A program made the position numbers and the translations under genes. A DNA stretch of 64,000 nt from Pseudomonadota bacterium (GTDB lineage Bacteria > Pseudomonadota > Alphaproteobacteria > MPNO01 > UBA830), in the NCBI GenBank assembly GCA_036339975.1, contig JAYYZV010000005.1, positions 2,099-66,098 of the forward strand, in the 5' to 3' direction. Under the pieces are notes generated by a model. It searched no databases and was not told the DNA's origin. It saw only the letters and a program-made list of their open reading frames with translations. Shown here in pieces: positions 28,807 through 55,516 of this stretch. The number at the start of each line of letters is the position of its first letter. Within the stretch, counting starts at the first letter, position 1.

Positions 28807-28808
28807 TT

Positions 28809-29336: not shown

Positions 29337-29355
29337 ACGAGGGGAGGAATTGAAA

Positions 29356-31710: not shown

Positions 31711-31721
31711 GGAGACGCGAA

Positions 31722-32537
31722 ATGAAACCTGCAAAGTTTGAACATCAGCGTATGACGTCGGTGGATGATGCGGTAAAGGCATTGGGAGAGGCCGATAAAG
31801 AAATTCGGGTTCTTGGCGGCGGTCAGTCACTGGGACCGATGATGAATTTACGCCTTGCGCAGCCTGACGTCTTGCTTGATCTCAGTCGGGTCGACGGTCT
31901 GACCGATATCGAGGAAGACGGCAATAGGCTGAAAATCGGTTCCCGAGTGACCCATGCCCGGATCGAGGATGGCGAAGTTCCCGGAACCACAGGCGCCTAC
32001 ATGCAGTTTGTTGCATCGGGCATTTCGTATCGCTCCGTTCGCAACCGCGGTACCATAGGGGGGTCGGTTGCACACTCGGATCCCGCCGCTGACTGGCCCT
32101 CGGCGCTATTGGCTCTAGGCGGTCACGTGACAGCTGCAGGCCCTGAGGGGCTGCGGACGATTTCGCTCGACGGATTTACGGTAGGGCCGTTTTCTACCGG
32201 TCTTGGTTTTGACGAGGTATTAACCGGTTTTGAGCTCGCTGTTCTCGGACCAGGCGCGCGATGGGGCTACTACAAGGTGAACCGAAAACCAGGTGAGTTC
32301 GCAGATGCGATCGGAGCAATTACTGTAGGCGCGGAACCGCGTGCGGTATGCGGAGCGACGGAGTCTGCGCCGTTCCGAGTGCCAGAAATTGAGCAACGGC
32401 TATCTGCCGGTGCCGACGAGCTATCTGTTGTAGACGCGCGAAATATTCTCGAAGAGCACGATACTGGCTTTGACGATTACGAATTACAGATACATGCTGT
32501 CGCGCTGAGCCGTGCGGTAAAGAGGGCCTTCGAATGA
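31722..32537 (+). CDS. molybdenum hydroxylase FAD-binding medium subunit (CoxM-like)
   Basis: 271 aa. GGGQSLGPMMNLR, RNRGTIGGS. Confidence 0.85.
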   Translation: MKPAKFEHQRMTSVDDAVKALGEADKEIRVLGGGQSLGPMMNLRLAQPDVLLDLSRVDGLTDIEEDGNRLKIGSRVTHARIEDGEVPGTTGAYMQFVASGISYRSVRNRGTIGGSVAHSDPAADWPSALLALGGHVTAAGPEGLRTISLDGFTVGPFSTGLGFDEVLTGFELAVLGPGARWGYYKVNRKPGEFADAIGAITVGAEPRAVCGATESAPFRVPEIEQRLSAGADELSVVDARNILEEHDTGFDDYELQIHAVALSRAVKRAFE

Positions 32538-33001
32538 CAGAGTTATCGTTAAAAATAAACGGCGAGGACATTGCCGCTGATGTCGAACATCGCCTTTCAT
32601 TAGCGGACTTCATCCGAGATCATCGGCGTCTAACGGGGACGCATCTGGGTTGCGAACACGGTGTGTGCGGCGCATGCACGGTTCTCATGGACGGCGAACC
32701 GGTTCGCTCTTGCATTACTCTTGCGGCTGTGGCGGATGGGACTGAAATCACTACCATCGAAGGCTTCGATGATGATGAACCCATGTCGGACCTGCGGCAG
32801 GCGTTTCATGAGAACCACGCCCTGCAATGCGGTTACTGTACACCCGGTATGCTAATAGCGGCGCGCGATATCGTTACCCGCCTGCCGGATGCCGAGGAGG
32901 ACCGTGTCAGGCTTGAACTCGCTGGCAATCTCTGCAGGTGTACAGGATACGTCGGCATAGTGAAGGCGATTCTTTCGGTTCTGGATCAGGGCCGCGCCTA
33001 A
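32534..33001 (+). CDS. molybdenum hydroxylase (2Fe-2S)-binding small subunit (CoxS-like)
   Basis: 155 aa. CEHGVCGACTV, QCGYCTPGM, CRCTGY. ATGA overlap with the medium subunit gene. Confidence 0.9.
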   Translation: MTELSLKINGEDIAADVEHRLSLADFIRDHRRLTGTHLGCEHGVCGACTVLMDGEPVRSCITLAAVADGTEITTIEGFDDDEPMSDLRQAFHENHALQCGYCTPGMLIAARDIVTRLPDAEEDRVRLELAGNLCRCTGYVGIVKAILSVLDQGRA

Positions 33002-33031
33002 GAGGCGGCATAATGGAGAGGTAACTCGGTA

Positions 33032-35371
33032 ATGCCGGATGGAGCGATGGGTCAGGGCATCGGGGCCAGCGTACTGCGCAAGGAAGACAAGCGGTTTCTG
33101 AGGGGCCATGGTCGCTATGTCGCGGATATTGCGAGACCCCGCATGCTCGAAGCAGCGATCGCACGGAGTCCAGTCGCGCACGCGAATGGCCTTAAAGTTG
33201 TCAAACCGCCGGGCGATGAAGCGCGGGTGTTCATAGCGGATGACATGGCTGCAGACGGTGTCGAGCCGATCCATGTCGTTTCTAAGTTTCCCGGGCACAA
33301 GGCGTCGGATTATCCCCATCTTGCGACTGATAAGTTACGTTTTGTTGGCGAAGCGATTGCGGTCTGCCTAGCGGATAACCGTGCAGCCGCTGAGGACCTC
33401 GTTGCAAAGACCCAAATTTCGTTCGATCCGTTGCCGCCGGTGGTTGAGATGCTGGATGCTGTCGAAAATCCTCCCGCCTTGGTCTACGATGACTGGGGAG
33501 ACAATGTAATTCTTGATTCTCGGTTCGAAGAGAATGTTGATGGAATTAATAGTGCGGCGGTCTCCGTGACCCGCTCGCTGCGGATGAACCGGCAAGCTGT
33601 TAACCCTCTGGAAGGTGCGGCGGTGCTGGCGGAATGGGATCCACGCGATGAACGTCTAGTGGTTCATAGCTCATCGCAGATACCCCATATTCTTAAAAAT
33701 GCGCTCTGTGAGTGCTTGGGGCTTCGACAGAGCCAAGTCCACGTTATAGCGCCGGATGTCGGCGGAGGGTTTGGCTATAAATGTGTGTTAATCCCAGAGG
33801 AAATTTATATTCCCTGGGTTGCCATGCAGGTGAAGCGCCCAGTGCGTTGGATTCAGGATCGTCGCGAACATCTGGTGGCTGCGGCAAATGCTCGTGAGCA
33901 CCACTACTCAGTTACGCTCCATGCTGATGCAGATGGAACCTTCATCGGCGTAGAGGCGGATATCGTTGTCGATTCGGGAGCCTATTCCGTCTATCCACAT
34001 TCAAATATTCTTGAGTCGACCATGGCTGGACGCACGCTTCATGGGCCATACAAATTCTCGGCTTACAAGGTGAGGTCGCGGGCCGTGGCGACTAACAAAC
34101 CGCCAATTGTACCGTATCGCGGTGTTGCCCGACCCGGCATATGCTTTGCAATGGAACTCGCGGTCGACGCAATGGCGCGTCAACTGGGACGCGAGCCCTA
34201 CGATCTGAGGATGCAGAACCTCGTTCCCGGTGACGCTATGCCCTACAAAACCATCACAGGCGGTGAGTTTGACAGCGGTGATTACCCCGAAGCATTACGC
34301 CGTGCCGGTTCTCTTATAAATGTGGCTGCGGTCCGAGAAAGGCAGGCAAATCGCGAGGCCGACGGCTGCCTGATCGGCGTCGGGTTTGGGTGCTATATCG
34401 AAATGACGGCTTTACAAACCTCTGCGGCGGCGAGGGCGGGCCTTGCCGCCATTCCTGGATACGAGCAGGCGCATATCAGGCTAACGCCTGATGGTGGATT
34501 GGAGATAGGCGTCGGGGTCCAGAACCATGGACAAGGTATGGAAACGACACTCGCACAGGTCGCTTGCGAACGTTTAGGTGTCGACATCGACATGGTTGCG
34601 GTGCGTCACGGAGATACAGCGACCTCACCGTATTCGACAGGGACCTATGCATCACGCTCCCTGATCATGGCCGGGGGGGCTGTTGCGCGGACCTGCGATG
34701 TGCTCGGTGAAAATATTCGGCGCATAGGGGCACATCTGCTCCAATGCGAGTTTGATGACACCCGAATAGAGGCCGCCTCCGTTGTGGGGCCGTCCGGCAA
34801 TGTGACGTTTGAGGAGGTCGCCCGCGTTTGGCATCGCAACCCGGAGGAGTTGCCGGCCGACATTGATCCAGCGGGTGTTGAAGTAACTTCAGGTTTCCGG
34901 CCAAAGCCCGACAACAGTCCGTTTTCTTATGCCACCCATGCCTGTATCGTTTCGGTCGACCCCGAACTAGGGCAGGTCGAAATACTGGATTACGTGATTT
35001 CGGAGGATTGCGGCACCATCGTCAATCCGATGGTCGTTGATGGTCAGATCATCGGTGGAGCCCTGCAGGGTGTTGGTACGGCGCTGCTTGAAGAGTCACG
35101 GTATGATGCGGATGGGCAGCCATTATCCTCTACATTTGCCGATTACACGATGCCGGGATCGACGCAGCTGCCGAAACTGCGTCTGGACCACCTCGTCACT
35201 CCCTCGCCGCTGACGGAGTACGGGGTGAAAGGACTAGGCGAGGGTGGGGCTATTCCGCCCCCCGCGGCGATTGCAAATGCTGTCAACGATGCACTGCGTG
35301 GATTTAATGTCGAAGTAACAGAGACCCCCATCACGCCGCGCCGCGTTCTGGCAACCATCGCAGGCGAATAA
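33032..35371 (+). CDS. xanthine-dehydrogenase/CoxL-family molybdopterin-binding large subunit, copy 2
   Basis: 779 aa, collinear with copy 1 over its full length. GIGASVLRKED, DVGGGFG, PYRGVARPG, GLGEGGAIP. Confidence 0.85.
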   Translation: MPDGAMGQGIGASVLRKEDKRFLRGHGRYVADIARPRMLEAAIARSPVAHANGLKVVKPPGDEARVFIADDMAADGVEPIHVVSKFPGHKASDYPHLATDKLRFVGEAIAVCLADNRAAAEDLVAKTQISFDPLPPVVEMLDAVENPPALVYDDWGDNVILDSRFEENVDGINSAAVSVTRSLRMNRQAVNPLEGAAVLAEWDPRDERLVVHSSSQIPHILKNALCECLGLRQSQVHVIAPDVGGGFGYKCVLIPEEIYIPWVAMQVKRPVRWIQDRREHLVAAANAREHHYSVTLHADADGTFIGVEADIVVDSGAYSVYPHSNILESTMAGRTLHGPYKFSAYKVRSRAVATNKPPIVPYRGVARPGICFAMELAVDAMARQLGREPYDLRMQNLVPGDAMPYKTITGGEFDSGDYPEALRRAGSLINVAAVRERQANREADGCLIGVGFGCYIEMTALQTSAAARAGLAAIPGYEQAHIRLTPDGGLEIGVGVQNHGQGMETTLAQVACERLGVDIDMVAVRHGDTATSPYSTGTYASRSLIMAGGAVARTCDVLGENIRRIGAHLLQCEFDDTRIEAASVVGPSGNVTFEEVARVWHRNPEELPADIDPAGVEVTSGFRPKPDNSPFSYATHACIVSVDPELGQVEILDYVISEDCGTIVNPMVVDGQIIGGALQGVGTALLEESRYDADGQPLSSTFADYTMPGSTQLPKLRLDHLVTPSPLTEYGVKGLGEGGAIPPPAAIANAVNDALRGFNVEVTETPITPRRVLATIAGE

Positions 35372-39134: not shown

Positions 39135-39578
39135 CTAATTCCGAGAACCTTCGAAGCCGCTCCAAGCCATATCGATAGCCTGTTCTATGGCGATACCCTG
39201 TCTAAGCTCCTCGTAAAGCGGATCTCCGAGCAGTCGCCAAAGATCGCGGGTCAGGCGAGCCAGTGCGTCGAATGCATATCGGGTGTCGAGATGCCCGGGG
39301 TCGAATCCGTATTCATCTGCCCATTCTGTAACATCGTCGAATTCCTCGTACTCGGCTGCAACTGCACCGAGATAGCGGAGTGTGTCCTCAATTGCTGGCG
39401 GCCCCTCACCAATCGGACATGTGAAATGAAATTCCATTTCGTGGGTACGTCCTCGCAACGTGCATTTGTAATGATCGCAGGCGTCTGGAACCTCGGTGCG
39501 GTGAAGATCTGGGTTGTCGTCCGCCGACCCGGAGTTCAACGATAATTGCGCCCGCGCGACGTAGTTCTCAACATCCAT
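39135..39578 (-). CDS. hypothetical acidic cytoplasmic protein
   Basis: C-terminal 147 codons (MDVENYV...) of tracked ORF 39135-39755. The upstream 59 codons look non-coding (Ser/Cys/Leu-rich). No recognisable family. Confidence 0.45.
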   Translation of the reverse strand: MDVENYVARAQLSLNSGSADDNPDLHRTEVPDACDHYKCTLRGRTHEMEFHFTCPIGEGPPAIEDTLRYLGAVAAEYEEFDDVTEWADEYGFDPGHLDTRYAFDALARLTRDLWRLLGDPLYEELRQGIAIEQAIDMAWSGFEGSRN

Positions 39579-39827
39579 TTCGATGGAACCTTTCTCGCTA
39601 TTACGTCTTGAAGGTCTGCCACTGATAGCGCGCCACGTGAGCAGAAATAAAGACGGGTGTGAGGCTGGTCCAGAAATCGTCCCCCGCGAATCCCAGAGTA
39701 GGCAACACGATATCGATAATAGGGTGTTTGGGGTAAATATGGAAAACTCCGACAAACCAGAAGTTCGCAGTAGCCATGGGGTGAATATCTACACGGTTTC
39801 CGCTTCCTTACAATTACATCTGGAGAG

Positions 39828-40787
39828 TTGTCACCTCATCTCATTTTATCCACGGCCACGATTGTTATAAAAGAACACAAGACTGTCATCAACGTTCCCG
39901 ACCCCATCGCCGTTTATGACGCAAATATGACAGACGGTGCCATTATCATTTTGCGGCAATACGGAAACCTTAACGGGCCACGCGTGGTACTCAGCCATGG
40001 AAATGGGTGTGCGATAAACGGATATTACCCCTACTGGGAACACTTGTTGCCGGGTTTTGAAGTAGTAATTTTCGATTTTCGGAACTGCGGTATGAACCCA
40101 GTGCACGATGGCGCACATGACTACAAGCGTTTTCTCTCGGACATGACGGGTGTTTACGATGCAATTGATATTGCGTTCGGCAAGAAACCTCAGATTGGCG
40201 CGTTCCATTCGATGTCAGCACGGGCAAATCTAAAGTATGCGATGGATGTTGACATTCGCTTAGACGGGCTAATTTTGTTTGATCCACCCATGGTGCCGCC
40301 CAGTGATCATCCACTTCACGACATAATGCTAAGCGAGGAACGCGTATTGTGGAGATGGAGCGCAGGGCGTCCCAATTCATTCGACGATCCGTCTGAACTG
40401 GCCGCGGCGTATGCTGGGTCGCGAATGTTATCCGCATGGGTCGACGGAGCCTATAATCTAATGGCCAGGGCTGTACTTCGGCAGAAAATGGGCTCCAAGA
40501 AATGGAAGTTAGTCTGTAGTCCCGCTCGCGAGTCTGAAGTCTATCGCCAGAATGCGGCAATGAATATCTGGCCGAAACCATCGGAAATTCCAATGCCGGT
40601 TTTATTGATCGCGAGCGACCCAGACAGCGGTATTCCGTCGGCGCCGGGGTTTGCCTGCCGAGCGCTGCGTGATGAACGTGGTTGGGCGTATGAATGTGTG
40701 TCCGGTACAGGTCACTTTTTGCAGATACAGAAACCAGAATGTTGCGCGCGTCTTACCCAAAGGTTTGCTGCGAAGATATTTGTCTAA
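39828..40787 (+). CDS. alpha/beta-fold hydrolase
   Basis: 319 aa. VVLSHGNG oxyanion region, nucleophile-elbow-like AFHSMSA, C-terminal GTGHF. TTG start; the start is uncertain. Confidence 0.6.
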   Translation: MSPHLILSTATIVIKEHKTVINVPDPIAVYDANMTDGAIIILRQYGNLNGPRVVLSHGNGCAINGYYPYWEHLLPGFEVVIFDFRNCGMNPVHDGAHDYKRFLSDMTGVYDAIDIAFGKKPQIGAFHSMSARANLKYAMDVDIRLDGLILFDPPMVPPSDHPLHDIMLSEERVLWRWSAGRPNSFDDPSELAAAYAGSRMLSAWVDGAYNLMARAVLRQKMGSKKWKLVCSPARESEVYRQNAAMNIWPKPSEIPMPVLLIASDPDSGIPSAPGFACRALRDERGWAYECVSGTGHFLQIQKPECCARLTQRFAAKIFV

Positions 40788-40793
40788 CTGGGT

Positions 40794-41561
40794 TCAAACC
40801 TCAATCGGCGTACCCCCAAGCTGCGTGAGATAAGTCTTCAGTTCTTCTGTCGGCATGATGCCTGAAAACATCTCATTTCTCATGTGAAGGCGTTGCATCG
40901 AGACCTCTAACAGTGCTTTTTTTGATGCTTCGAAATCTGCATTGGTGTTGATTTTTCCTTTGAGATCAGCTGCTGCGTGGTCCACATGTCCGTCCTCGTC
41001 GTCGGCGATAACCTTGAACGCCGCTGCAAGCTTGGTCTCAAAAACGCCGCCCGTCAGCTTTGCTCCTTCGCGGAATGTGGCCGTCCCGCCGCCTTCGGTC
41101 AGCTCCATCGTAGCGCGTACCGCGGGATTCTCCGAATTCACGTAAACGTGGCGCAGTTTATTTAATTTATCGTCTTCAGGTAATTGGCCGACATCTCCGT
41201 GCCGTAGGGGACGACCAAGAAGACCTTCAAGTACTTCCGCCAACACGGTGTAGTGCATGAATTCCTCGGTCATCTGTTCCAGCCGGTGATGAAAACCGCG
41301 CCGATCCATACCGTCGTCGACCGAGTTGAATTGGTTTACCAGAGAGGTAAATTCCATATGAAGACCACACGCAAATCCATCGGTTGAACCGTAACCGATA
41401 ACCGGATTTAGTTCCTTGTAGACAGCTGCCTTAAGATAGTGGAGCCAGATGTCTTTCGATGGATTTGAAGCGAAGAACCTTCGCGTCAGCTCTGCTTCTG
41501 TTTCCCAGTAAGGCGTGGCTAAGTCGACTAGCTGCTGTGTATAAGGAGGATTGTCACTCAT
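40794..41561 (-). CDS. uncharacterised ferritin-like di-iron-carboxylate protein (putative oxidase/oxygenase)
   Basis: 255 aa. Ligand-like pattern E70, E100-FM-H103, E153/E156, E189-DG-H192 (E-x~30-ExxH twice). ATGA overlap with the upstream TauD gene, with GGAGG 9 nt upstream of the ATG. Confidence 0.5.
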   Translation of the reverse strand: MSDNPPYTQQLVDLATPYWETEAELTRRFFASNPSKDIWLHYLKAAVYKELNPVIGYGSTDGFACGLHMEFTSLVNQFNSVDDGMDRRGFHHRLEQMTEEFMHYTVLAEVLEGLLGRPLRHGDVGQLPEDDKLNKLRHVYVNSENPAVRATMELTEGGGTATFREGAKLTGGVFETKLAAAFKVIADDEDGHVDHAAADLKGKINTNADFEASKKALLEVSMQRLHMRNEMFSGIMPTEELKTYLTQLGGTPIEV

Positions 41562-42445
41562 ATTATGGGACCTCCTATACCTGACAGAGGCGCATCACCC
41601 GCCACAGTGGTGCGGTGGAGAAGGCGGCGCGAATTTACGAGGTCATAGGGCATAGCCTGGTGCATTACGCAGATATTATCGAACATCACCATGTCGCCAT
41701 CCTCCCATTCGTGACGATAAATAAACTGCGGCTGGGTGCAGAATTCTTCCAGTTCATCAATCAACCTGCGTGCACCCTTGTATGACATGCCTTCAATCCC
41801 TGCTGCATGCGACCCGATAAATAGTGCGCGACGTCCATTTGGACGTTCAGCGACTAACGGCTGCCGTGCGGGGGGGGTTTCTGCCTGCACCTCGGGTGGC
41901 CGCGGAGGTAAGCTGTGACGCCGTCGCGTTTCTTCAAAATCGTGGATTATTACCAAGGTCTCAAGGGCGCGTTTTCGCTCTTCGGATAGGGCATCGTATG
42001 CGAGAGTCGTATCCGCAAACATCGTGTCACCCCCTTCCTCGGGCATTTCTATCGCATAGAGAATTGAGGCTTTGGACGGCAGGATGCGAAATGACGAATC
42101 AATATGCCAAGACGACGTCCCTAGCGTAAAAGACTGGTGTCCGGGATCATCCACCGGTTTGATCGTATTTGTAGCGCGGTCGATGTTGGTAACTCGAAGA
42201 ACCGTCTTGTAACCTTCCGCCTGATCCTTGCGGTCGGGAAAGTTCTCCAGCGTACCGAACTTTTCACTAAACGCGACCTGCTGGGCGACAGTCCAGTATA
42301 GTTTGCGGAAGATCAGAAGCCGATGTGTGTTGAACGCATCGTGCACCGTCCTTACCACTTTCTCCGAAAGGGACCGTAAAGGTTCCATCCCATCAACCTC
42401 TGCCCCAATCCCACTGCTGCGCGGTGTAATGGTGATACTCGACAT
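41558..42445 (-). CDS. TauD/TfdA-family Fe(II)/2-oxoglutarate dioxygenase
   Basis: ATG 42445 (GAGG upstream) within ORF 41558-42478. WHIDSS (HxD), GGDTMFAD, FDNICVMHQA. Confidence 0.8.
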   Translation of the reverse strand: MSSITITPRSSGIGAEVDGMEPLRSLSEKVVRTVHDAFNTHRLLIFRKLYWTVAQQVAFSEKFGTLENFPDRKDQAEGYKTVLRVTNIDRATNTIKPVDDPGHQSFTLGTSSWHIDSSFRILPSKASILYAIEMPEEGGDTMFADTTLAYDALSEERKRALETLVIIHDFEETRRRHSLPPRPPEVQAETPPARQPLVAERPNGRRALFIGSHAAGIEGMSYKGARRLIDELEEFCTQPQFIYRHEWEDGDMVMFDNICVMHQAMPYDLVNSRRLLHRTTVAGDAPLSGIGGPII

Positions 42446-42575
42446 TTTTCTTACCTCGCTCCGTCGAAGATTAACCACCCCTTTGCGTATCTACAATGCG
42501 CATGGCGTTGTCTTGGCGTTCTGCCTGTGACAGTTTCAGGAACACAATTTTAGCCCGTGCAGAAGGACACCTTCC

Positions 42576-43463
42576 GTGGAAAAGATCAACATCCAGTTCA
42601 CCCTCTTCTCGGCATTTTATTCGCCACTTATTTCGACCTTTTCCGCAGGGTTTCTGCAGGAAGAGGGCCTTGATCCTGACTGGTCAGTGTCTCCACCCGG
42701 TGTCTCGGCAATCGCGGCGCTGGAAGATGGATCGGCCCATGTCGTCCAGTCGGCGCTGAGCCAAGGGTTCACCCCCTTGGATAATGGCCAGACCCCAAGC
42801 GTGGTTCATTTTGCACAGATTAACGAGATGGATGGATTTTTTATCACCGGGCGCGATGCAGATCCGAATTTCACATGGGACAAATTAGAGGGAGCAGAGG
42901 TAGTGACATTCGCCGGTGGTCAGCCGCTCGCTATGTTCAAATACGCCTGCCACAAGGCGGGTGTCGATTACGACGCCATCAACCTCATCCATCCCGGTGG
43001 GGCAGCCGATATAGACAAGGCTTTTCGTGAGGGCACAGGTCAGTACGTGCAGCAGCAGGGGCCGTTTCCGCAACAGCTGGAAGCCGACGGCATCGGATAT
43101 GTCGTTTCGCAATCCGGTCCCCTGATTGGTCCGTGCGGATTCTCAAGTCTGGCGGCTACGCGGCAATGGTTGGAAACGGACACGGCAAAGGCTTTTATGC
43201 GTGCTTACACAAAAACGCGGAGATATATGAATGATACGCCCGCCGCGGATATCGCGAAGGCCGAGAAGCCGTATTTTCCCGATATCGACGAGGCAGTCTT
43301 GGCGAAATGTATCGCTTCCTATCAGGACCTCGGAACCTGGGCGCCGCATGTGGAGATCACTAAGCCCGCGTTCGAGGTCATCCTCAATGTGTTTGAACAT
43401 TTTGGCACATTGAAGGAACGCTACACCTGGGATCAGGTATGTGTGCTTCCCCCGACAGGGTGA
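42576..43463 (+). CDS. SsuA/NMT1/THI5-like periplasmic-binding-fold protein lacking a signal peptide
   Basis: 295 aa. It starts directly with the mature-domain-like strand KINIQFTLFSAFYSPL. FLQEEGLD, EDGSAHVVQSA and LEGAEVVTFAGGQP fit the type-2 PBP pattern. No N-terminal hydrophobic leader. Confidence 0.6.
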   Translation: MEKINIQFTLFSAFYSPLISTFSAGFLQEEGLDPDWSVSPPGVSAIAALEDGSAHVVQSALSQGFTPLDNGQTPSVVHFAQINEMDGFFITGRDADPNFTWDKLEGAEVVTFAGGQPLAMFKYACHKAGVDYDAINLIHPGGAADIDKAFREGTGQYVQQQGPFPQQLEADGIGYVVSQSGPLIGPCGFSSLAATRQWLETDTAKAFMRAYTKTRRYMNDTPAADIAKAEKPYFPDIDEAVLAKCIASYQDLGTWAPHVEITKPAFEVILNVFEHFGTLKERYTWDQVCVLPPTG

Positions 43464-44618: not shown

Positions 44619-46241
44619 ATGAACGATCCCAAATCGCGCGGTTACAAAGACATGCAAGATCATATGTGGGCGCTTGATGCCGCTGGTCTGCTGACGACGA
44701 TTGATGCACCGATCAATAAAGACACCGAACTTAGTCCCTTGGTTCGGTGGCAGTTTAGAGGTGGAATTCCAGAAGTTGAGCGAAAAGCGTTTCTTTTTAA
44801 GAATGTGATGGGAGCGGAAGGAAACCGATTCGATATCCCGGTCCTGACGGGCGCTCTGGCTGGAAACGCCGAGATCTATGCCATCGGTATGGGGGTTTCG
44901 GTAGACGATATCGGCGATTGCTGGGCCAATGCGATCGCAAACCCCATTGATCCGGTCGAATTTGCATCACCGCCGTGCCAAGAAGTTGTATTTGAAGGCG
45001 CCGGCCTAGTCTCGGGTAATGGTTTGGATGCGTTGCCCGTACCGGTATCCACACCCGGTTATGATTCCGCACCGTATCTTACCGCAACCGTCTGCGTCAC
45101 CAGTGATCCTGACAACGGTATTCAGAACCTCGGTACTTATCGCGGCGGGTTGAAGGCACCCGACCGGATCGGACTAAAAATGTTCATGAATCTGGGGCAA
45201 GGCGCCGCTGCGCACTGGGAAAAATATCGAGCCCGGGGTGAGGCTATGCCGATGGCAATAGTAGTCGGCTGCCCGCCGCCCATCGCGTATTGCGGTCCTC
45301 AGAAATTACCAGAGAATATTGACGAGATCGGCATAGCCGGCGGCATCGCCGGCGTGCCGATGCGCATAGCAAAGGCGCGCACCAGCGACCTGATGGTGCC
45401 TGCGGATGCCGAGATCGTAATTGAGGGACTGCTCGATCCAAATCATTTTGAGCCAGAGGGACCGTTTGGGGAAAGCCATGGTTATATAAATCTTGAGGAG
45501 TTTAATTTTATCTTGCAGGTGACCGCCATCACCCGGAAAAGAAATGCTGTTTTCACCTCTATCATCAGTCAGGTTACACCGTCTGAGTCTTCTGTGATCA
45601 AACGGGTTGCTTACGAACCCTTGTTCCTCAATCACCTGCGCGAACACCTCGGCATAAAAGCCGTAGTGCGCGTGTGTATGCATGAAGCCCTGACAAATTT
45701 ACGTAAAGTCGTTGTCGTTCAGTTCGCGCGCGGTACGGTCCGTACCGAAATTTGGCGCGCGCTATATGGTGCCATGTCGTTTCAGGCGGCGGTCGGAAAA
45801 TATATAATTGCTGTTGACGAGGATATCGATCCGCGAAATCTCGATGCCGTATTTTGGGCGATGAGCTACCGGGCCAACCTTGCGGATGACTGCGAGGTTA
45901 TCCATCATAGGCCACGGGGGCATGGACCAAAAACAGGCGCGACTGAGGATGCGACGCTTGCTATAGACGCCACGCTGAAAGCGGATATGGCACCTGTGGC
46001 GCTTCCCAAGCGCGAATACATGGAAAATGCACGAGAAATCTGGGATCGGCTTGGCCTGCCGCCGTTAAAGCCAGAAGCGCCCTGGCACGGCTATGAGTTG
46101 GGTGACTGGTCCGCGGAATGGGATCGGCTAGCCGAACGCGCTGCGGCTGGGGACTGGATCGCCAATGGTGAACGCTCTAATCAAAAGCGCCGTGCCGGGG
46201 TTAAGCCCAACACCGACGTGCGCAAGGTTGATAAGGATTAA
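44619..46241 (+). CDS. UbiD-family (prFMN-dependent) decarboxylase, paralog 2
   Basis: 540 aa, collinear with 3183-4850. PINKDTELSPLVRWQFRGG, QNLGTYR, VVGCPP, EGPFGESHG. Confidence 0.85.
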   Translation: MNDPKSRGYKDMQDHMWALDAAGLLTTIDAPINKDTELSPLVRWQFRGGIPEVERKAFLFKNVMGAEGNRFDIPVLTGALAGNAEIYAIGMGVSVDDIGDCWANAIANPIDPVEFASPPCQEVVFEGAGLVSGNGLDALPVPVSTPGYDSAPYLTATVCVTSDPDNGIQNLGTYRGGLKAPDRIGLKMFMNLGQGAAAHWEKYRARGEAMPMAIVVGCPPPIAYCGPQKLPENIDEIGIAGGIAGVPMRIAKARTSDLMVPADAEIVIEGLLDPNHFEPEGPFGESHGYINLEEFNFILQVTAITRKRNAVFTSIISQVTPSESSVIKRVAYEPLFLNHLREHLGIKAVVRVCMHEALTNLRKVVVVQFARGTVRTEIWRALYGAMSFQAAVGKYIIAVDEDIDPRNLDAVFWAMSYRANLADDCEVIHHRPRGHGPKTGATEDATLAIDATLKADMAPVALPKREYMENAREIWDRLGLPPLKPEAPWHGYELGDWSAEWDRLAERAAAGDWIANGERSNQKRRAGVKPNTDVRKVDKD

Positions 46242-46339: not shown

Positions 46340-47215
46340 TTGAAATTATCCTTTGCAAAGCCTCCCCCAATAGTTGCCGGCCCCGCTTGGATGGTCCTTG
46401 CCGGGACCGGGTATACGCTGGCATCCGTTTGTACCCGCGAATTGTCGTCGGATTATTCAACCGCACAGCTTGCGTTCATGCGGGCAGTGATAGCCATGGC
46501 ATTCATCATGCCCATGATCGCCCGAAACGGCATTCACGTGATGAAAACCACTGTTTTCCCGATCCATGCGATACGGGGGTGTCTTACCTACGGTGGGATG
46601 ATGTGCTGGTTTTATGCTGTCAGCGTGATCCCGATCTCCGATTACACAGCGCTACTGTATATCCAGCCGGTCTTCACTATCCTTCTCGCGGTGCTTATCC
46701 TTGGCGAAAACGCCGGACCGCGAACCTGGGGCGCGATCGCTGTAGCCTTTGCAGGCGCACTGATCATCTTGCGGCCGGGCTTTCAGGAAATAAACCTCGG
46801 TATGATGGCCGCGTTGGCGACCGGCATTTTGTTCGCCGGGGTCAATACTTGTATGAAAACACTTTCGAAAACAGACTCGGCCGCTGTGATGGTTGCCTAT
46901 GTCAGTATCCTAATGCTTATTTTTTCCTCAATCCCTGCTTGGCTCTATTGGACAGATCTCAGCTTGCAGGACATTCCCACCATTATAGGCGTGGGGGTAT
47001 TCGCGCTTCTTGGTCAGTATTCCATCACCCGAGCGATTGCGGTTGCGGAGGCGCGCGTCGTACAGCCTTTCGACTTTTCCAGACTAATTACGGCCGCCAT
47101 CATTGGTTGGATCGTGTTCGGTGAAAGTTCGGATCTATATACTTGGGCTGGAGCGCTGGTTATTTTTTGCGCGAGTTACTACGTAATCGTCTTCGAGCGG
47201 AGGGATCAGCACTAA
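46340..47215 (+). CDS. EamA/DMT-family transporter
   Basis: 291 aa, about 10 TM segments, TTG start. ALIILRPGF and PFDFSRL..GWIVFGE motifs. Confidence 0.8.
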   Translation: MKLSFAKPPPIVAGPAWMVLAGTGYTLASVCTRELSSDYSTAQLAFMRAVIAMAFIMPMIARNGIHVMKTTVFPIHAIRGCLTYGGMMCWFYAVSVIPISDYTALLYIQPVFTILLAVLILGENAGPRTWGAIAVAFAGALIILRPGFQEINLGMMAALATGILFAGVNTCMKTLSKTDSAAVMVAYVSILMLIFSSIPAWLYWTDLSLQDIPTIIGVGVFALLGQYSITRAIAVAEARVVQPFDFSRLITAAIIGWIVFGESSDLYTWAGALVIFCASYYVIVFERRDQH

Positions 47216-47417
47216 TCGCGCACCACATCACCACCATCGTTTCGGCAGACGGTAGCCGTAAAGAATCCGTGCTTGACGCCCGGCGGGTAACGTCCGCGGG
47301 CGGCGACGGAATTGTGCCTGCGATTGAAAATGTATTAGCTGTCTTTAGGCCGAAGACATGGGGTTTTGGCGGTTGTTCACTGTCTGAAGAGGCCGGTATG
47401 GAGGTCGTGGAAATGAT

Positions 47418-48122
47418 ATGATAACGCAATACACATGGCCTACGCCGAACGGGCATAAGGTATCGATCCTAATTGCGGAGCTTGGCCTTGAGAGCGAAAT
47501 TGTCGCTGTCGATATCAATATTGGTGAACAGTTTAATCCAGCGTTCCTCGAAATAAGTCCGAACAACCGGATTCCGGCGATTATCGATCACAAGCCTGTC
47601 GACCGGGGTGGCCCGGTATCCGTGTTCGAGACTGGCGCAATTCTGTTGTATCTTGCCGAAAAAGAGGGGCGATTACTTCCGCAACCGAGTGAAATCCGAG
47701 CGTATAAGTCGGTGATAGAGTGGCTGATGTGGCAGATGGGCGGACTTGGTCCGATGGCGGGCCAGGCACACCATTTTAGACAGGCGATGGGTGGCGTCGA
47801 CGTGCCGTATGGTGTAGAGCGTTATTCTAATGAAGTCCGCCGTCTGTATGATGTAATGAACAGACGTCTTTCGGAAACCGAGTGGCTGGCTGGCGACGAA
47901 TATTCAGTTGCCGATATTGCCTGCTGGCCTTGGGCTCGCCCGTCCCGGCGACAGGGAGTTGATAAGGCTGACTTTCCCCATGTGAAACGTTGGTTTGATG
48001 TTATGGCTGCTCGTCCTGGCGTACAAAAGGGAATGGAGCTTTTGAGCGACAGGCGTGGATCGAGAGAGTTGACCGATAGATCACGTGAACTTTTGTTCGG
48101 CATGGGCCAGTTGGAGCGATAA
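47418..48122 (+). CDS. glutathione S-transferase (YfcG/YghU Nu-class-like)
   Basis: 234 aa. TPNGHKVSILIAELGL, NPNNRIPAI-like block, VFETGAILLYLAEK. GGAGG upstream. Confidence 0.85.
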   Translation: MITQYTWPTPNGHKVSILIAELGLESEIVAVDINIGEQFNPAFLEISPNNRIPAIIDHKPVDRGGPVSVFETGAILLYLAEKEGRLLPQPSEIRAYKSVIEWLMWQMGGLGPMAGQAHHFRQAMGGVDVPYGVERYSNEVRRLYDVMNRRLSETEWLAGDEYSVADIACWPWARPSRRQGVDKADFPHVKRWFDVMAARPGVQKGMELLSDRRGSRELTDRSRELLFGMGQLER

Positions 48123-48363
48123 TTATGGTTGATAAATGGATCAACTGCCCCCACTGCGCCAAAATGGAATACAATTTCCCGACGGTTGCCTGCGCAGCGG
48201 CTGAGAAAATTGAATCCTCTCCCATCACTCCCCCAATTTTCTTAAGACCAATCAACACGTGGAGACTGTTTAGATAGCAGTTGGAACTTAAAAATGGCGG
48301 GTTACCGAGGGCGGACGCGGTGTTATTTCCTTTAGTTATTTCCGAATCCAGTTGAGGGGGCGT

Positions 48364-49269
48364 TCAGTGCACCCCAGGTGCCTCGCCACGACGGGCTTCT
48401 TCGCGAACGCTGTAGTAATTAGCGGCGAAGATGACTAAGCCACCGACCGCTGTCCAAGGATTGATGGCCTCAGCGTAAATCAAATATCCGAGAAGTGCCA
48501 TTAATGGCAACCGCAGAAAATCCAGTGGAAAAATGATTGTGATATCAGCGAGTTTCAATGCCCGTGCCATGGTGTAATGCGCTGCCAGTCCGGACAGCCC
48601 CCACGCTAGAATCCAGGGGATATCAATCAATGTGGGTGTCACCCAATCGAAAATGAAGACTGCAGGAATAAGACCCAGCGGTAGCTGCATCGCGTTCATA
48701 TAAAATATAATGCCTTGTGGTGACTCAGTGCGTGTTAAGTATTTAACCAAAACCCCGGATCCGGCATAAAGAAACGATCCCAGAAGCATCACGAAGCCCG
48801 CGACGCTGAAGGCGGACCCTTCCGGTTGCAAGATGATCAATGCTCCGGAGAAGCCTAGTATCGTAGCAATCCATTTATGCCGCCACATGGTTTCACCCAA
48901 GAACATGACGGCGAGAATGGCGGTAAAAAGTGGGACGGAGAATTCGATGGCCGTCAGGTCCGATAAAGTCAGATGTACAATCCCGTACATCCAGCATAGC
49001 TGCGCCGAAAACTGAATTAGCGCACGGAAGCCGTGGAATCTGAGGTTGGTCGTGTGCAGATCGCGAAAACGTTCACGCATGACAAAGGGCAGCACAGCTA
49101 TGACGCCGATAAGGGACCTGAAGAACAGAATCTCGAAAGTCGACATGGTGGTGTGTAATTCGCGTGCTGAAAGGGCCATTCCGGCGAAGCCCGCCATGGT
49201 GCCGCAGAACCAGAGGACAGCTTGAAAAAGTGGCGGCACTACCGAGGTATCCCGCGGGTTTCCCGCCAT
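48364..49269 (-). CDS. EamA/DMT-family transporter (array member 5, distal)
   Basis: ORF 48364-49350. ATG 49269 suggested (10 residues before TM1), which overlaps the upstream gene by 31 nt. ALIILQPEG, PLDFLRLPL..YAE. Confidence 0.75.
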   Translation of the reverse strand: MAGNPRDTSVVPPLFQAVLWFCGTMAGFAGMALSARELHTTMSTFEILFFRSLIGVIAVLPFVMRERFRDLHTTNLRFHGFRALIQFSAQLCWMYGIVHLTLSDLTAIEFSVPLFTAILAVMFLGETMWRHKWIATILGFSGALIILQPEGSAFSVAGFVMLLGSFLYAGSGVLVKYLTRTESPQGIIFYMNAMQLPLGLIPAVFIFDWVTPTLIDIPWILAWGLSGLAAHYTMARALKLADITIIFPLDFLRLPLMALLGYLIYAEAINPWTAVGGLVIFAANYYSVREEARRGEAPGVH

Positions 49270-50135
49270 ACCGAGTAGTAGTTGCCACCGAAAATCAGGA
49301 TCGCTCCCCCCAGCACCCAAATACTCACGCCTTCGGAATAGATCAACCAACCGATCAATGCGGCCAACGGCAGCCGCACAAAATCAACCGGGATGCAGAC
49401 GGTGGCGTCTGCGAGTTGGAAGGCGCGGGCAAGGCAGAAATGTGCTGACATTCCAGTCAATCCAATAGCCAGTAACCAAGGGGTATCAGCCCACATCGGC
49501 CATACCCATTCGAACCAGAATACCGCCGGCAGAAAAGCCAGCGGCAGCTGAATGATTTGCATCCAAAAAACGATGACCCAGGGTGCATCATCGCTGGTCA
49601 GTGATTTCATCATTACATTTGAGATGCCGTAGCATAGTGCACCCAGTAGTACTACTAGTGCACCTTGGGTGACGATCTCGAACCCCGGGCGCAGGATGAC
49701 TAGGACGCCCGCCATACCCATCGCGACGGCGATCAACCTGTGCGATTTTGCTCTTTCTCCCAGAAAAAGCATGGCGATGATGGCAGTCCACATGGGCATA
49801 GTGAATTCTAATGCGGTCACATGTGCCATCGGCAGTAAGGTAATACCGATCACCCAGCACCACTGACCGCCGAAATGAACCACATTTCGGCCAAGCTGCA
49901 TACCGAACCGGCGAGTTTTGACTTTGTGGAAACCGAGGCGCCACGCCACTAGGCCCATGATGGGAATTCCGATGATCGATCGGAAGGACAGTAGCTCGAA
50001 GCTCGACAGGTTAGTCGACAGTTCGCGTACGGAGACCATCATCAGAATGAACGATGCCGCTGTCCCGAGCACCCAGAATGCGGCAAGCACAGCGTTCTGG
50101 GCCGGTTGAGATGTCTGCGCGGCGGGGTCTGCCAT
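49239..50135 (-). CDS. EamA/DMT-family transporter (array member 4)
   Basis: ATG 50135 within ORF 49239-50252. VLVILRPGF, PVDFVRLPL..YSE. Confidence 0.8.
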   Translation of the reverse strand: MADPAAQTSQPAQNAVLAAFWVLGTAASFILMMVSVRELSTNLSSFELLSFRSIIGIPIMGLVAWRLGFHKVKTRRFGMQLGRNVVHFGGQWCWVIGITLLPMAHVTALEFTMPMWTAIIAMLFLGERAKSHRLIAVAMGMAGVLVILRPGFEIVTQGALVVLLGALCYGISNVMMKSLTSDDAPWVIVFWMQIIQLPLAFLPAVFWFEWVWPMWADTPWLLAIGLTGMSAHFCLARAFQLADATVCIPVDFVRLPLAALIGWLIYSEGVSIWVLGGAILIFGGNYYSVWRETRGIPR

Positions 50136-50158
50136 TGGTTGGTACCCGTTTAAAGAGA

Positions 50159-51073
50159 TCAGTCGGTCGTCGTCGAACTTGACCTGACGGTTCGCGTTTC
50201 CTTGCGGACAATATACATTGTCGACACAAAGATAACCGCCCCACCGACCCATGCCCAGACCACCGGTGCTTCCCCGAAAAAGAGGAAGGCACCCAGCGTC
50301 ACCCAGGGCAGCTTGGTAAAATCGACGATAATAATCAGGCTAGCATCCGCCAACGCCAATGCTCGGGCTAACATCCAGTGGGCAAGAGTCGCCGTTGCCG
50401 CAAGACCGATTAGCCACGGCGCGTCGGTCATTTGAGGCATCGAGATACCGCCCATAGCCCATGCGGCGGCGAGCGCCAGCGGCAAATGTATAACATTCAT
50501 ATAGAAAACAATCGTGTCGCTGGTACCGTCCCGCATCAATACCTTTGTTACGATATTTGCACCCGCGTATCCGACTGCGGAGACGATAGCTGAAATTGCG
50601 GCGATGGTGACCGGTTCTAACCCTGGCCGCAGGATGATCAGGACGCCGGCAAAGCCTATGAAAGTTGCTATCCATCGCACCGTGTCCACCCGTTCCCCTA
50701 GAAACACAATGGCGAGAAGAATGGTGAATAATGGCACCGTAAACTGCAACGACATGCCAACCGATAGATTCATCTGCGATATTGCGTAAAACCAGCCGGC
50801 AACACCAATGAAATGCATGAGATTACGGAGCAGATGCCACCTAAACATTCTGGTACGAAACAGCCCACTACCTGTCCGTCCGAAAACGGGCACCAGAAGG
50901 ACTAACCCGATCAGGGCCCGCCAAAATGCTAGCTCCCCCGTGTTATACCTATCGGCTAGGTGCCGCACGATCATGACCATAGACATGAAAGCGACAGTTG
51001 ATAACGCTATCCAGATAAAACCCCGAAGATTCGGTGAAAGCTTGGTGAGCCGTTGCCGGAAACTGCCGATCAC
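50159..51073 (-). CDS. EamA/DMT-family transporter (array member 3)
   Basis: 304 aa. VLIILRPGL, IVDFTKLPW..FGE. 4-nt overlap with the upstream member. Confidence 0.8.
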   Translation of the reverse strand: MIGSFRQRLTKLSPNLRGFIWIALSTVAFMSMVMIVRHLADRYNTGELAFWRALIGLVLLVPVFGRTGSGLFRTRMFRWHLLRNLMHFIGVAGWFYAISQMNLSVGMSLQFTVPLFTILLAIVFLGERVDTVRWIATFIGFAGVLIILRPGLEPVTIAAISAIVSAVGYAGANIVTKVLMRDGTSDTIVFYMNVIHLPLALAAAWAMGGISMPQMTDAPWLIGLAATATLAHWMLARALALADASLIIIVDFTKLPWVTLGAFLFFGEAPVVWAWVGGAVIFVSTMYIVRKETRTVRSSSTTTD

Positions 51074-51993
51074 GCGTTACCCTTTGCCGCGTTATCCTGC
51101 CGTTGTTTCTCCAACCGGCTTTCCCGCGCCGTGATATACCAAGTGCAGATGAAAATAAGGCCTCCGCCAACCCATACCCATATAGTTGGCACTTCGCCGA
51201 ATAGTGCGAAGGCGAAACCGGAGGTGATTGGAAGGCGAAGGAAGTCGGTCGGCCCGATGATGCTGGCGTCTGCCAGTTTAAGAGCGCTCGTGTACATTAG
51301 GGGTGCCAGAGTACCTGTTACGCCGATGAAAAGAATAGGTAGAATGTCGTCTACCGTCGGAGGCACCCATAGCCATAAAGTCAGTGGTACGCTGAGAAGA
51401 AGAATGAAAAAATTGGTGTAGAACGTCAGCGCCAGCGGCGTTTCGGTCTTAACCATGAATTTCAGAAAAATAACAGTCCCGGCATAGAGTGCCGCTGAGC
51501 CAAGGATCATCAGCTCTGCTAATCCTACGTCTAAATTGCCAGGTTGCAGTATGACCAGAGTTCCGCAGAAGCCGACGACGGTTGCGGCCGTTCGACGAAT
51601 ACCTACACGTTCGCCAAGGAAGATGACGGCGAGCAGGATCAGGAAAAGCGGCAACGTGAAATGGATTGCGACGGCTTTTCCCAGTGGCACCACGCCGATG
51701 GCGTAAAACCACATAATCATCCCCGCAAAATTAACTACTGCCCGTATCGCGTGCATGCCTAGTCGTTGTGTTTTCAGTAGGTGGACGCCTTTCCAGGCGA
51801 AGTAGGGCATCAGGATCATCATGCTGACCAACATTCGCCAAAAAACAATCTCCGGCGATGCCATTGTGTCGGTTAGATATCTCACGCACGTATGTGTCGA
51901 CGAGAAAAGAAACATCGAAAGTACTGCGATTATAACGCCGGTGATGACGTTCGATGATGCTGGATTAAGGGAGGTGCTGTCGGGGGAAGTCAT
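51070..51993 (-). CDS. EamA/DMT-family transporter (array member 2)
   Basis: 307 aa. TLVILQPGN, PTDFLRLPI..FGE. Confidence 0.8.
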   Translation of the reverse strand: MTSPDSTSLNPASSNVITGVIIAVLSMFLFSSTHTCVRYLTDTMASPEIVFWRMLVSMMILMPYFAWKGVHLLKTQRLGMHAIRAVVNFAGMIMWFYAIGVVPLGKAVAIHFTLPLFLILLAVIFLGERVGIRRTAATVVGFCGTLVILQPGNLDVGLAELMILGSAALYAGTVIFLKFMVKTETPLALTFYTNFFILLLSVPLTLWLWVPPTVDDILPILFIGVTGTLAPLMYTSALKLADASIIGPTDFLRLPITSGFAFALFGEVPTIWVWVGGGLIFICTWYITARESRLEKQRQDNAAKGNA

Positions 51994-52028
51994 CTCCTTA
52001 AAGTAGAGTATTTTGTGCGTATGAGGAA

Positions 52029-52925
52029 TTACGCAGCTTTATCGGCTTCGCGCCGCGCTATAAAGTAGGTGCTAACGAATATGATGGCAGCGCCGAGCCA
52101 TACAAATTCGTCTGGCACTTCGCCAAACAGGGCAAATCCGAAAAGAGCTGTAAAGGGCAGGCGCATAAAATCGTATGCTGCGATCAAACTTGCTTCCGCC
52201 TTTCGAAGGGCGATTGCAACAAGGAAGGGCGCGAACAGGCCGCATACGCCAAGGCCCATAACCGGCAGAATGTCTGCGTTCGTCAAAGGTGCCCAAAGGA
52301 TTATAGTCGGGACCAGACAGCCTATCGCCATGAACAGATTAGTATAAAATGTCACCGCCGCAGGGGTTTCGCTCTCCACCACCTTTTTTAGAAAAACCAC
52401 GGCGCCGCCGTACAAGGCCGCCGATCCCAATATGGCAAGTTCCGGCAGACCGGTTTCGATCATGCCGGGGCGGAGAATAACCAATACACCGCTAAATCCC
52501 GCCAACATTGCGGAGACCCTCCACAGACCAATACGTTCTTTCAGGAAGATTGCGGCCAGTAGCACAATGAAAAGCGGCATGGTGAAATGAATTGCGATAC
52601 CCTTGGCTAATTCTATATGTCCCAGGGCCCAGAACCACAAAACCATCCCCACGAAATTGAAGGTCGATCGGATCACGTGAACTTGTATTTGTCGTGATTT
52701 CAGCTTGTGGACGCCGGACCAAATGAAATAAAGCCCGATTCCGACCACGCCTAACAAAGCGCGTATGAATACAATCTGCCATGACGACATCGTATCAGAT
52801 AGAAGCCGCACCGACGGCGGTACGACGCTGAACAACAACATCGCGACGGTTGAGATGATTGTTGCCTGAATGACGGGGCTCAGCGCACCGAAGCCCGATT
52901 GGCTAGAAGGTATGAACATTGTCAT
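52029..52925 (-). CDS. EamA/DMT-family transporter (array member 1, promoter-proximal)
   Basis: 298 aa. VLVILRPGM, AYDFMRLPF..FGE. Confidence 0.8.
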   Translation of the reverse strand: MTMFIPSSQSGFGALSPVIQATIISTVAMLLFSVVPPSVRLLSDTMSSWQIVFIRALLGVVGIGLYFIWSGVHKLKSRQIQVHVIRSTFNFVGMVLWFWALGHIELAKGIAIHFTMPLFIVLLAAIFLKERIGLWRVSAMLAGFSGVLVILRPGMIETGLPELAILGSAALYGGAVVFLKKVVESETPAAVTFYTNLFMAIGCLVPTIILWAPLTNADILPVMGLGVCGLFAPFLVAIALRKAEASLIAAYDFMRLPFTALFGFALFGEVPDEFVWLGAAIIFVSTYFIARREADKAA

Positions 52926-53646: not shown

Positions 53647-53685
53647 TCTTTGTATATTAAATTCTGCTAAATGGAGAAATTGGTT

Positions 53686-55176: not shown

Positions 55177-55474
55177 TAATAGTACGGGGAAGAATGCCAC
55201 GCGGCCTGAGACTATAAGCCGTTTTGAGGCTAACGTATTCCAACTCCGTGTGGCCGGGAGAGTGAGGTCCGCAAGGAAGTTGGACAGCACAGCTATTTTT
55301 AAATTCTGGGTTCCCCCGCTGTCCTTCGTTCTTCAAGAGCAGCCCCTGATGGCTGAGTGAACTGTGGTTTAGGAGCAGTTGCTTTGACCGGCGAAAATGA
55401 CGTTCGCCAAATAAATTTTTCAAATGATCTAAAGGCATATCTTTCGAGAAGTGCTGTAGTTCGCGATCAGCGAA

Positions 55475-55516
55475 CCGCCCACTTTGCATGGCCTGCTTTT
55501 CGATGGGCGGGTTTTT
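55475..55516 (+). terminator. Rho-independent-terminator-like hairpin 56 nt upstream of the GMC oxidoreductase start
   Basis: CCGCCCA 55475-55481 pairs with TGGGCGG 55504-55510, followed by GTTTTT (to 55516). Immediately preceded by hairpin TTCGC-GATCA-GCGAA (55460-55474). Confidence 0.4.

Follow-up and report, generated by a model that had tools for sequence, protein, structure and literature searches.

Diiron and Mn/Fe oxidases catalyse decarboxylation to alkenes, N-oxygenation, C-C fragmentation and the formation of nitriles and alkynes. The heme-oxygenase-like members bind their metals through a canonical set of three histidines and three carboxylates, with an HxxxD/ExxH motif on the last core helix, and a function has been assigned to only about a dozen of them (PMC13108848). 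In MboA the ligands are E86/H89, E143 and H172/D176/H181, with spacings of 57 and 33 (PMC13185094), while SznF takes an extra ligand from an auxiliary helix ahead of its first ExxH (PMC7848743). Such an enzyme can also follow a 2-oxoglutarate (2OG)-dependent one: the Fe/2OG halogenase BesD and the heme-oxygenase-like diiron oxidase BesC are described as acting in that order on one substrate (10.1101/2021.12.02.471016). Here, we describe a protein of 255 aa, X, encoded in a 64,000-nucleotide stretch of DNA (the window) from a Pseudomonadota bacterium of the alphaproteobacterial lineage UBA830 (GenBank assembly GCA_036339975.1, contig JAYYZV010000005.1, positions 2,099 to 66,098 of the forward strand). 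With little more than even confidence, we read X as a dimetal, O2-activating helical-bundle enzyme of heme-oxygenase-like form. What is new is the family of X, which is unannotated, has a divergent ligand set and is accompanied by different partner enzymes in different lineages.

The X gene and its immediate surroundings are arranged as follows:

40794..41561, minus strand: gene X, 255 aa; candidate dimetal-carboxylate oxidase/oxygenase of an unannotated family
41558..42445, minus strand: TfdA/TauD-family Fe(II)/2-oxoglutarate dioxygenase, 295 aa; Pfam TauD, E = 1.3e-58
41558..41561, minus strand: ATGA shared by the stop of TauD and the start of X, coupling their translation
41575-41571, minus strand: GGAGG Shine-Dalgarno sequence of X, within the final TauD codons, 9 nt ahead of the ATG
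42446..42575, no strand: intergenic spacer of exactly 130 bp separating the TauD-X operon from the divergent NMT1-like gene
42576..43463, plus strand: leaderless SsuA/NMT1-type binding-protein-fold protein, 295 aa; NMT1, E = 2.6e-6; NMT1_2, E = 4.8e-6

In this genome the TauD-like and X genes are translationally coupled: the ATG of X (41561-41559) shares its last two bases with the TGA stop of the upstream TauD gene (41560-41558). The coordinates, overlaps and motifs that a sequence-only reading of the locus had given for these three open reading frames (ORFs) were correct in every sequence detail, and the coupling that it had deduced from the ATGA overlap and the internal GGAGG was borne out, both genes being real.

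Searches of Pfam, NCBIfam and PDB sequences with the X protein and with a profile of its family returned nothing significant, in agreement with the sequence-only reading, which could name no family for it. A 90%-identity collection yielded 132 homologues, chiefly from marine, plus other, Alphaproteobacteria, and all of the named ones are hypothetical proteins. A profile search extended this to 270 clusters at 50% identity, and a metagenome scan, run on a narrower alignment of X-like relatives representing a single distant subfamily, added 456 relatives of that subfamily. The published census of heme-oxygenase-like proteins, comprising about 9,600-10,000 sequences, began from InterPro heme-oxygenase-like annotations (PMC7848743); because of this starting point, and because X matches no Pfam or NCBIfam model, the family was probably missed.

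The X sequence carries E70, E99-E100-F-M-H103, E153, E156 and D188-E189-D-G-H192, and their conservation was examined both in a narrow family (sequences with at least 49% identity to X) and across a superfamily of 38-39 sequences reaching down to 22% identity. In the narrow family, E22, E50, H68, H103, D188, E189, H192 and E230 are invariant, and E70, E99, E100 and E156 are at least 90% conserved. Across the superfamily, the invariant residues are K49-E50, E100, H103, R137, G158, E189, H192 and R228, followed by the nearly invariant E22, E24 and E156, while conservation of H68 and E70 is confined to X's own narrow family. On this conservation, the two ExxH motifs and the intervening glutamate appear to be the core of the site. 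Given its persistence down to 22% identity, we take the E/H pattern to be more than chance. The di-iron ligand pattern proposed in the sequence-only reading therefore survives in part: E100/H103, E156 and E189/H192 are conserved across the superfamily, but E70, its first ligand, is conserved in the narrow family only, and the carboxylate kept throughout is E50 instead. The candidate ligands from this alignment are E50, E100, H103, E156, E189 and H192, with H68 and E70 as additions in the narrow family. In sequences P0383, P0384, P0385 and P0207 (alignment A4), the E156 equivalent is Pro and the D188 equivalent is Gln, and both ExxH motifs are kept; this subgroup may have a mononuclear or otherwise altered site.

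We infer that X most likely binds dinuclear iron (or Mn/Fe) through these carboxylates and histidines and would oxidise a small metabolite with O2. At the core of its predicted site would be E100-x-x-H103, E156 and E189-x-x-H192, with E50 as a further carboxylate, and in X's own family H68 and E70 may join it. The substrate probably bears a carboxylate, as suggested by the invariant R137 and R228 and by the neighbouring genes described below. X and its co-translated TfdA/TauD-type dioxygenase would then probably act successively on one compound.

An AlphaFold2 model of X had a predicted local distance difference test score (pLDDT) of 92.7 and was all helical, and an independent AlphaFold model of the distant relative P0379 reached 94.3. 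When both models were compared with the PDB using Foldseek, the top matches were TenA/thiaminase II, UndA, CADD and CADD-like proteins, BesC, AetD and HmuO. These heme-oxygenase-like matches had template modelling (TM) scores of 0.5-0.62 and probabilities of about 1.0, but E values above 1e-3. Ferritin-like proteins (PaaA, AurF, an archaeal protein resembling aldehyde-deformylating oxygenase (ADO), and R2lox) gave TM scores of 0.39-0.53. The ferritin-like fold assumed in the sequence-only reading thus lost ground, as heme-oxygenase-like structures rank above ferritin-like ones for both models. The best structural neighbours of both, the heme-oxygenase-like diiron enzymes, are also of similar size (about 230-260 aa), and in predicted fold X looks nearest to the diiron oxidases UndA, BesC, CADD and AetD, with no strong match.

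The candidate ligands are distributed over helices 66-80 (E70), 87-115 (E100xxH103), 146-166 (E156) and 173-201 (E189xxH192), with 56 residues from E100xxH103 to E156 and 33 residues from there to E189xxH192. This spacing matches that of MboA and UndA (ExxH, about 56 to a Glu, about 33 to D/ExxH) and is also compatible with ferritin-like enzymes. In the X family, H68 and E70 are found where the extra auxiliary-helix ligand of SznF lies, while the invariant K49-E50 pair falls outside the canonical ligand scheme of heme-oxygenase-like diiron enzymes.

The highest TM scores to the X models, 0.55-0.62, were those of TenA (thiaminase II), a metal-free protein of heme-oxygenase-like fold, and the NMT1/THI5-type gene adjoining X is reminiscent of pyrimidine salvage. 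TenA lacks a metal-type E/H set such as X carries. X differs further in that its family has no invariant Cys and it has no TENA_THI-4 Pfam match, and neither a thiamine pyrophosphate (TPP) riboswitch nor any other riboswitch was found near the X locus. A role in thiamine-pyrimidine salvage, with a TenA-like fold beside a THI5/ThiY-like gene, was rejected on these four grounds.

Several observations weigh against reading X as a heme-oxygenase-like diiron enzyme. The canonical set of three histidines and three carboxylates, tested as defined in PMC13108848 and PMC13185094, is absent from X: position 185, where the last motif would have the first His of HxxxD/ExxH, is Ile, or Val in relatives, and the superfamily as a whole has just two invariant histidines. 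No Foldseek match to either model had an E value below 1e-3, which places X remote from every solved structure. An hhalign comparison of the X superfamily with the canonical PF14518 family from related loci gave a probability of 0.1 and no similarity, although its sensitivity is limited because the alignment is shallow. E156 is missing from one distant subgroup. The neighbours of the X genes vary among TauD, RdhA-like, UbiD-like and none within the narrow family, whose members presumably share one function; this variation prevents assignment to any one pathway, and there is weak support for X and TauD acting in sequence. Finally, the weak sub-threshold sequence matches of X members point to ferritin-clan families, and Pfam matches to PF14518, PF03070 and PF01126 were lacking among the 38 X members up to E = 1.

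The ferritin-clan matches suit another explanation, in which X is a classical ferritin-like four-helix-bundle diiron protein; the fold class alone would then differ, and the chemistry would be similar. A tandem E...ExxH motif defines the ferritin-like scaffold (PMC7848743), and X has one in (E50 or E70)...E100xxH103 and E156...E189xxH192, whose two sets would be supplied by helix pairs 66-80/87-115 and 146-166/173-201. Ferritin-like oxidases (R2lox, ADO, AurF and PaaA) and DUF455 share with X both this motif and its composition of two histidines and four carboxylates, and have weak collinear similarity to it at the second ExxH helix. DUF455 was matched by six of the 38 X members (best E 0.003, 15 bits against a cut-off of 34) over the last ExxH helix only; a search of the literature on DUF455 found nothing on function. 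The R2-like ligand-binding oxidase R2lox was matched at E = 0.06, the DDExxH of X aligning to its ExxH helix, rubrerythrin was matched at E = 0.016, and an archaeal ADO-like protein was matched as well. In structure, R2lox reached a TM score of 0.53, and AurF and ADO-like proteins were among the matches of the second model. Yet none of the ferritin-clan Pfam models reached its threshold, E70 is unconserved beyond the narrow family, and ferritin-like structures, abundant as they are in the PDB, score below the 0.55-0.62 of heme-oxygenase-like ones. We therefore consider a classical ferritin-like protein a serious if rather doubtful candidate.

As we read these data, X combines a heme-oxygenase-like scaffold with a ferritin-type ligand set, and for that reason would be a new variant rather than a clean member of either superfamily. 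A bolder proposal, which we think unlikely, is that O2-activating dimetal enzymes come in a third structural variety, founded by X, with a heme-oxygenase-like scaffold and a ferritin-type tandem ExxH. H68 and E70, on an auxiliary helix, would then complete a site of three histidines and four carboxylates like those of SznF, AurF and CmlI, and X would be a portable oxidative module placed beside TfdA-like, aerobic RdhA/QueG-like B12 or UbiD-like partners. If this were true, the chemistry of X on an aromatic or carboxylate substrate would be undescribed for either superfamily. The family is worth characterising because it would show whether a heme-oxygenase-like scaffold can accommodate ligands of the ferritin type, and because a new oxidative step might come to light in how marine aromatic, ether or organohalogen compounds are broken down.

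The gene upstream of X encodes, as the sequence-only reading had stated, a TauD/TfdA Fe(II)/2OG dioxygenase. The Pfam TauD match (199 bits) covers profile positions 3-267 of 267, indicating a full-length domain, and the HxD...H...R set is intact: H115-x-D117, H262 and R275 align with the HxD, distal His and 2OG-binding Arg of TfdA. The protein carries the motifs WHIDSS (residue 113) and FDNICVMHQA (residue 255). An alternative GTG start at 42478 would add 11 residues to the protein, but its orthologues are 295-296 aa long. Its closest solved relatives are TfdA (5bke, 5e-40) and the aryloxyalkanoate dioxygenases, both ether-cleaving, and it scored 137 bits against the taurine dioxygenase equivalog NF007104, for which the cut-off is 313. 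From these profile scores we place it in the TfdA/TauD family and not among taurine dioxygenase orthologues. At five loci (L013-L015, L017 and L018), a second, divergent TauD paralogue (31-35% identical) is found about 2.2-2.9 kb upstream of X, so that the NMT1-like gene sits between two TauD-family genes; the window has no second paralogue.

The nearest precedent for the TauD-X gene pair is BesD/BesC. The sequence-only reading had suggested that a ferritin-like partner in place of the HD-domain protein would be an undescribed solution, but BesD/BesC already pairs a 2OG-dependent enzyme with a diiron enzyme that is not of the HD type (10.1101/2021.12.02.471016). The TauD-X pair as such is therefore not a new logic, and a two-enzyme pathway can be proposed only weakly. 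The two systems also differ: BesD is a halogenase of another 2OG subfamily, BesC has the canonical three histidines and three carboxylates and no detected homology to X, and the TauD-X pairing is restricted to one lineage.

To place the pair in its wider context, the neighbourhoods of X were compared across 38 species-level loci from GTDB genomes and loci retrieved by exact protein look-up, and clade relationships were taken from a neighbour-joining tree. Three further genes of the window recur in this comparison:

39828..40787, plus strand: alpha/beta hydrolase, Pfam Abhydrolase_6; convergent with X
44619..46241, plus strand: deep-branching UbiD-family (prFMN-type) decarboxylase, 540 aa; Pfam UbiD
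47418..48122, plus strand: YfcG-like (Nu-class) glutathione transferase (GST)/disulfide reductase; NCBIfam PRK13972, 241 bits

In the tree, the narrow X family splits into two deep lineages. The first has a basal grade (69-76% identical to X) without TauD, in which X overlaps by 1 or 4 nt a downstream gene for a protein of 330 aa from the reductive-dehalogenase (Rdh)/QueG superfamily (TIGR02486, 108 bits; PceA and NpRdhA at about 1e-24). This X-Rdh overlap was found in sister clades from aerobic marine Alphaproteobacteria. The RdhA/QueG-like partner, about 330 aa with two [4Fe-4S] motifs, is encoded for example at L004:8765-9760 and also at L009, L013-L015, L017 and L020-L024. Nested within the Rdh grade is a monophyletic marine clade (74-81% identical, window included), in which TauD lies directly upstream of X in 11 of the 12 species-level loci with the window counted; leaving it out, TauD is immediately 5' of X in ten of the eleven related clade-A loci, an arrangement that we likewise take to exceed chance. 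The TauD-X overlap in those ten is exactly 4 nt in seven, and 8, 7 and -11 nt in the other three. Three loci of the nested clade keep the RdhA-like gene too (TauD-X-Rdh), and in one other TauD is absent and X is joined to Rdh alone.

The second deep lineage (49-57% identical to X) has neither TauD nor Rdh adjoining X, which is instead divergent from an operon of UbiD-like, isocitrate-dehydrogenase-family and GST genes, near a GST gene alone, or among housekeeping genes. The window gene at 44619-46241 shares 62-65% identity with its UbiD-like orthologues in this lineage. UbiD-like orthologues overall (62-85% identity) are near X in clade A and directly divergent from it in clade C, and 24 of the 38 species-level loci have a GST orthologue (50-82% identity) no more than 10 kb from X, the linkage being one of clades A and C. 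Because UbiD-like and GST orthologues are also present 3-8 kb from X in the TauD clade, window included, this linkage spans both deep lineages and is probably the oldest association of X. The alpha/beta hydrolase is likewise kept beside X or the X-Rdh unit in clades A and B. A pairing with TauD that is conserved in related genomes, which the proposal of the sequence-only reading called for, is largely lacking in this survey: the coupling is confined to the one nested marine clade, and is recent and lineage-specific rather than the defining context of X.

These results bear on the proposal, also made in the sequence-only reading, that the TauD-like protein and X carry out a two-step oxidative C-P, C-S or C-N cleavage in the manner of PhnY*/PhnZ or TmpA/TmpB. 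Both of those systems share the two-gene logic of a 2OG hydroxylase followed by a diiron oxygenase, and the co-translation of the two window genes, the divergent SsuA/TauA-type binding-fold gene, a class-V aminotransferase gene 3 kb away that weakly resembles PhnW/AepZ (83.6 bits, cut-off 360) and a cluster of RdhA-like, TauD-like and TauE genes in another genome could all be fitted to it. However, the second enzyme of PhnY*/PhnZ and TmpA/TmpB is an HD-domain protein, and X has no HD domain in Pfam. Their first enzyme belongs to the gamma-butyrobetaine-hydroxylase type, unlike the window dioxygenase: the latter scored 26.7 bits against the TmpA model (cut-off 400) and 28.5 bits against the gamma-butyrobetaine hydroxylase model (cut-off 415), and is closest to the ether-cleaving TfdA/aryloxyalkanoate enzymes. 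TauD, TfdA and AtsK-type enzymes normally release the leaving group alone, making a second enzyme unneeded. Apart from the weak PhnW-like match nothing phosphonate-specific lies nearby, no phn or sulfite-handling genes were found in the window region examined, and the TauD coupling is limited to one nested clade. Cleavage of this kind is therefore very improbable, and a replacement for PhnZ is a poor guide for experiments.

The variety of partners could instead indicate that X is an accessory protein (a redox partner, a rubrerythrin-like peroxide or oxygen scavenger, or a metal handler) for whichever cofactor-dependent enzyme is encoded with it. The partners differ in chemistry, and all depend on cofactors (TauD-type Fe(II), RdhA/QueG-like B12/[4Fe-4S], canonical diiron and UbiD-like), their coupling to X is tight (overlaps of 1-4 nt), and the diiron cofactors of heme-oxygenase-like enzymes are labile (PMC7848743). 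X is also found alone among housekeeping genes. Against this, a defined pocket for a small molecule is suggested by K49-E50 and the arginines that never vary, and RdhA-like and TauD-like genes also occur together without X. The RdhA-like family, with 3,627 hits, is itself found without X: at L134, an RdhA-like gene lies beside TauD, TauE (sulfite exporter family) and a beta-eliminating lyase, and the X gene of that genome lies elsewhere. We know of no precedent for a single accessory function that serves iron, B12 and prenylated-FMN enzymes alike. MboB, the sole known dedicated redox partner of such an enzyme, is a flavin/[2Fe-2S] reductase unlike X (PMC13185094), and was rejected for that reason as a precedent for an X-like partner. 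We judge an accessory role to be improbable, and continue to favour a dimetal O2-activating enzyme of heme-oxygenase-like form.

More distant relatives of X provide some further indication of its chemistry. In a soil and sediment subfamily, all 21 loci with enough flanking sequence have the same operon order: a thiolase-like gene, a short-chain dehydrogenase/reductase gene, a PF14518 diiron enzyme gene and, last, the X-like gene (L054-L074, L087 and L110; for example, L062:5241-5951 followed by 6001-6774). The PF14518 'iron-containing redox enzyme' of these operons is a canonical HxxxDxxH diiron enzyme, so that two putative dimetal helical proteins are encoded by adjacent genes. Another X-like subgroup sits after a TctC-type binding-protein gene, while the subgroup at 48-51% has no conserved neighbours. 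In single look-ups, one X-like gene followed a fused TRAP transporter, a second stood between genes for a luciferase-like monooxygenase and a CMD-family protein, and a third lay 4 nt downstream of an Amidohydro_2 gene. A recurring theme is that the gene just ahead of the X-like one often encodes an oxygenase, and among the frequent neighbours are decarboxylases (UbiD-like, Amidohydro_2 and CMD), transporters (TRAP and TctC) and acyl-CoA ligases. Taken with the invariant R137 and R228, these carboxylate-related neighbours suggest substrates that bear a carboxylate.

The protein divergent from the TauD-X operon matched NMT1 (27.9 bits, cut-off 20.5) and NMT1_2 (27.0 bits, cut-off 24.7) weakly but above the cut-offs, and had only a weak match, 3qsl, in the PDB. 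No start codon lies between its GTG and the preceding in-frame stop, which leaves no room for a signal peptide, and its orthologues are of the same length. No ABC permease or ATPase gene adjoins it. The description of this protein in the sequence-only reading as leaderless, SsuA/NMT1-like and lacking ABC partners is thereby upheld, and from its sequence it is probably cytoplasmic. In clade A and in part of clade B, orthologues (72-89% identity) keep this divergent orientation relative to X with or without TauD. The 130-bp control region contained no sigma-70-like promoter match and no Rfam element, and a promoter and terminator scan of the locus gave nothing above shuffled expectation. On the other side of X, 6 bp separate the convergent stop codons of the alpha/beta-hydrolase gene (plus strand) and X (minus strand), at window positions 40787-40794, and no terminator-like structure was found between them.

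The 25 kb around X are rich in genes typical of aromatic and xenobiotic catabolism, including genes for an NtaA/DmoA-type flavin monooxygenase, an aldo-keto reductase and a quinone oxidoreductase, together with the class-V aminotransferase, alpha/beta hydrolase, UbiD-like, YfcG-like GST and EamA transporter genes mentioned elsewhere in this text. The region thus resembles one for aromatic catabolism, and its set of genes also takes in:

29350-35371: two xanthine-dehydrogenase-family Mo-hydroxylase large subunits with FAD and 2Fe-2S subunits
52965-53579: MarR regulator gene, after the EamA genes
53671-60447: HpaB-family hydroxylase, GMC oxidoreductase, acyl-CoA ligase and Rieske oxygenase alpha subunit

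The UbiD-like protein falls below all equivalog cut-offs, its best PDB relative being HmfF (6h6x, 2e-37, 132 bits), and none of the genes examined was a UbiX gene. Between lineages whose X proteins share only about 50% identity, the orthologues of the UbiD-like protein share 62-85%. A literature search linking reductive dehalogenases, UbiD and marine Alphaproteobacteria was uninformative.

At 23785-29336 on the plus strand, queA, tgt and a genuine queG form a queuosine cluster in the window, with dus and a Vut_1/YhhQ-type transporter gene after them; in the clade-B genomes L004 and L009, the Vut_1 gene and the adjacent Mo-hydroxylase genes are syntenic with the X locus. The RdhA-like protein is a QueG relative, and queA-tgt-queG and the YhhQ-type transporter gene lie 12-17 kb from X; we considered a queuosine link and found no specific support for it. 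Of six EamA-family transporter genes within 46340-52925, five form a minus-strand tandem array (48364-52925), an unusual local expansion. A conserved hypothetical gene without a Pfam or NCBIfam match (39135-39755, minus strand) accompanies the X cluster in clades A and B with 43-78% identity; it encodes 206 aa from a TTG start here and is called as 147 aa in relatives.

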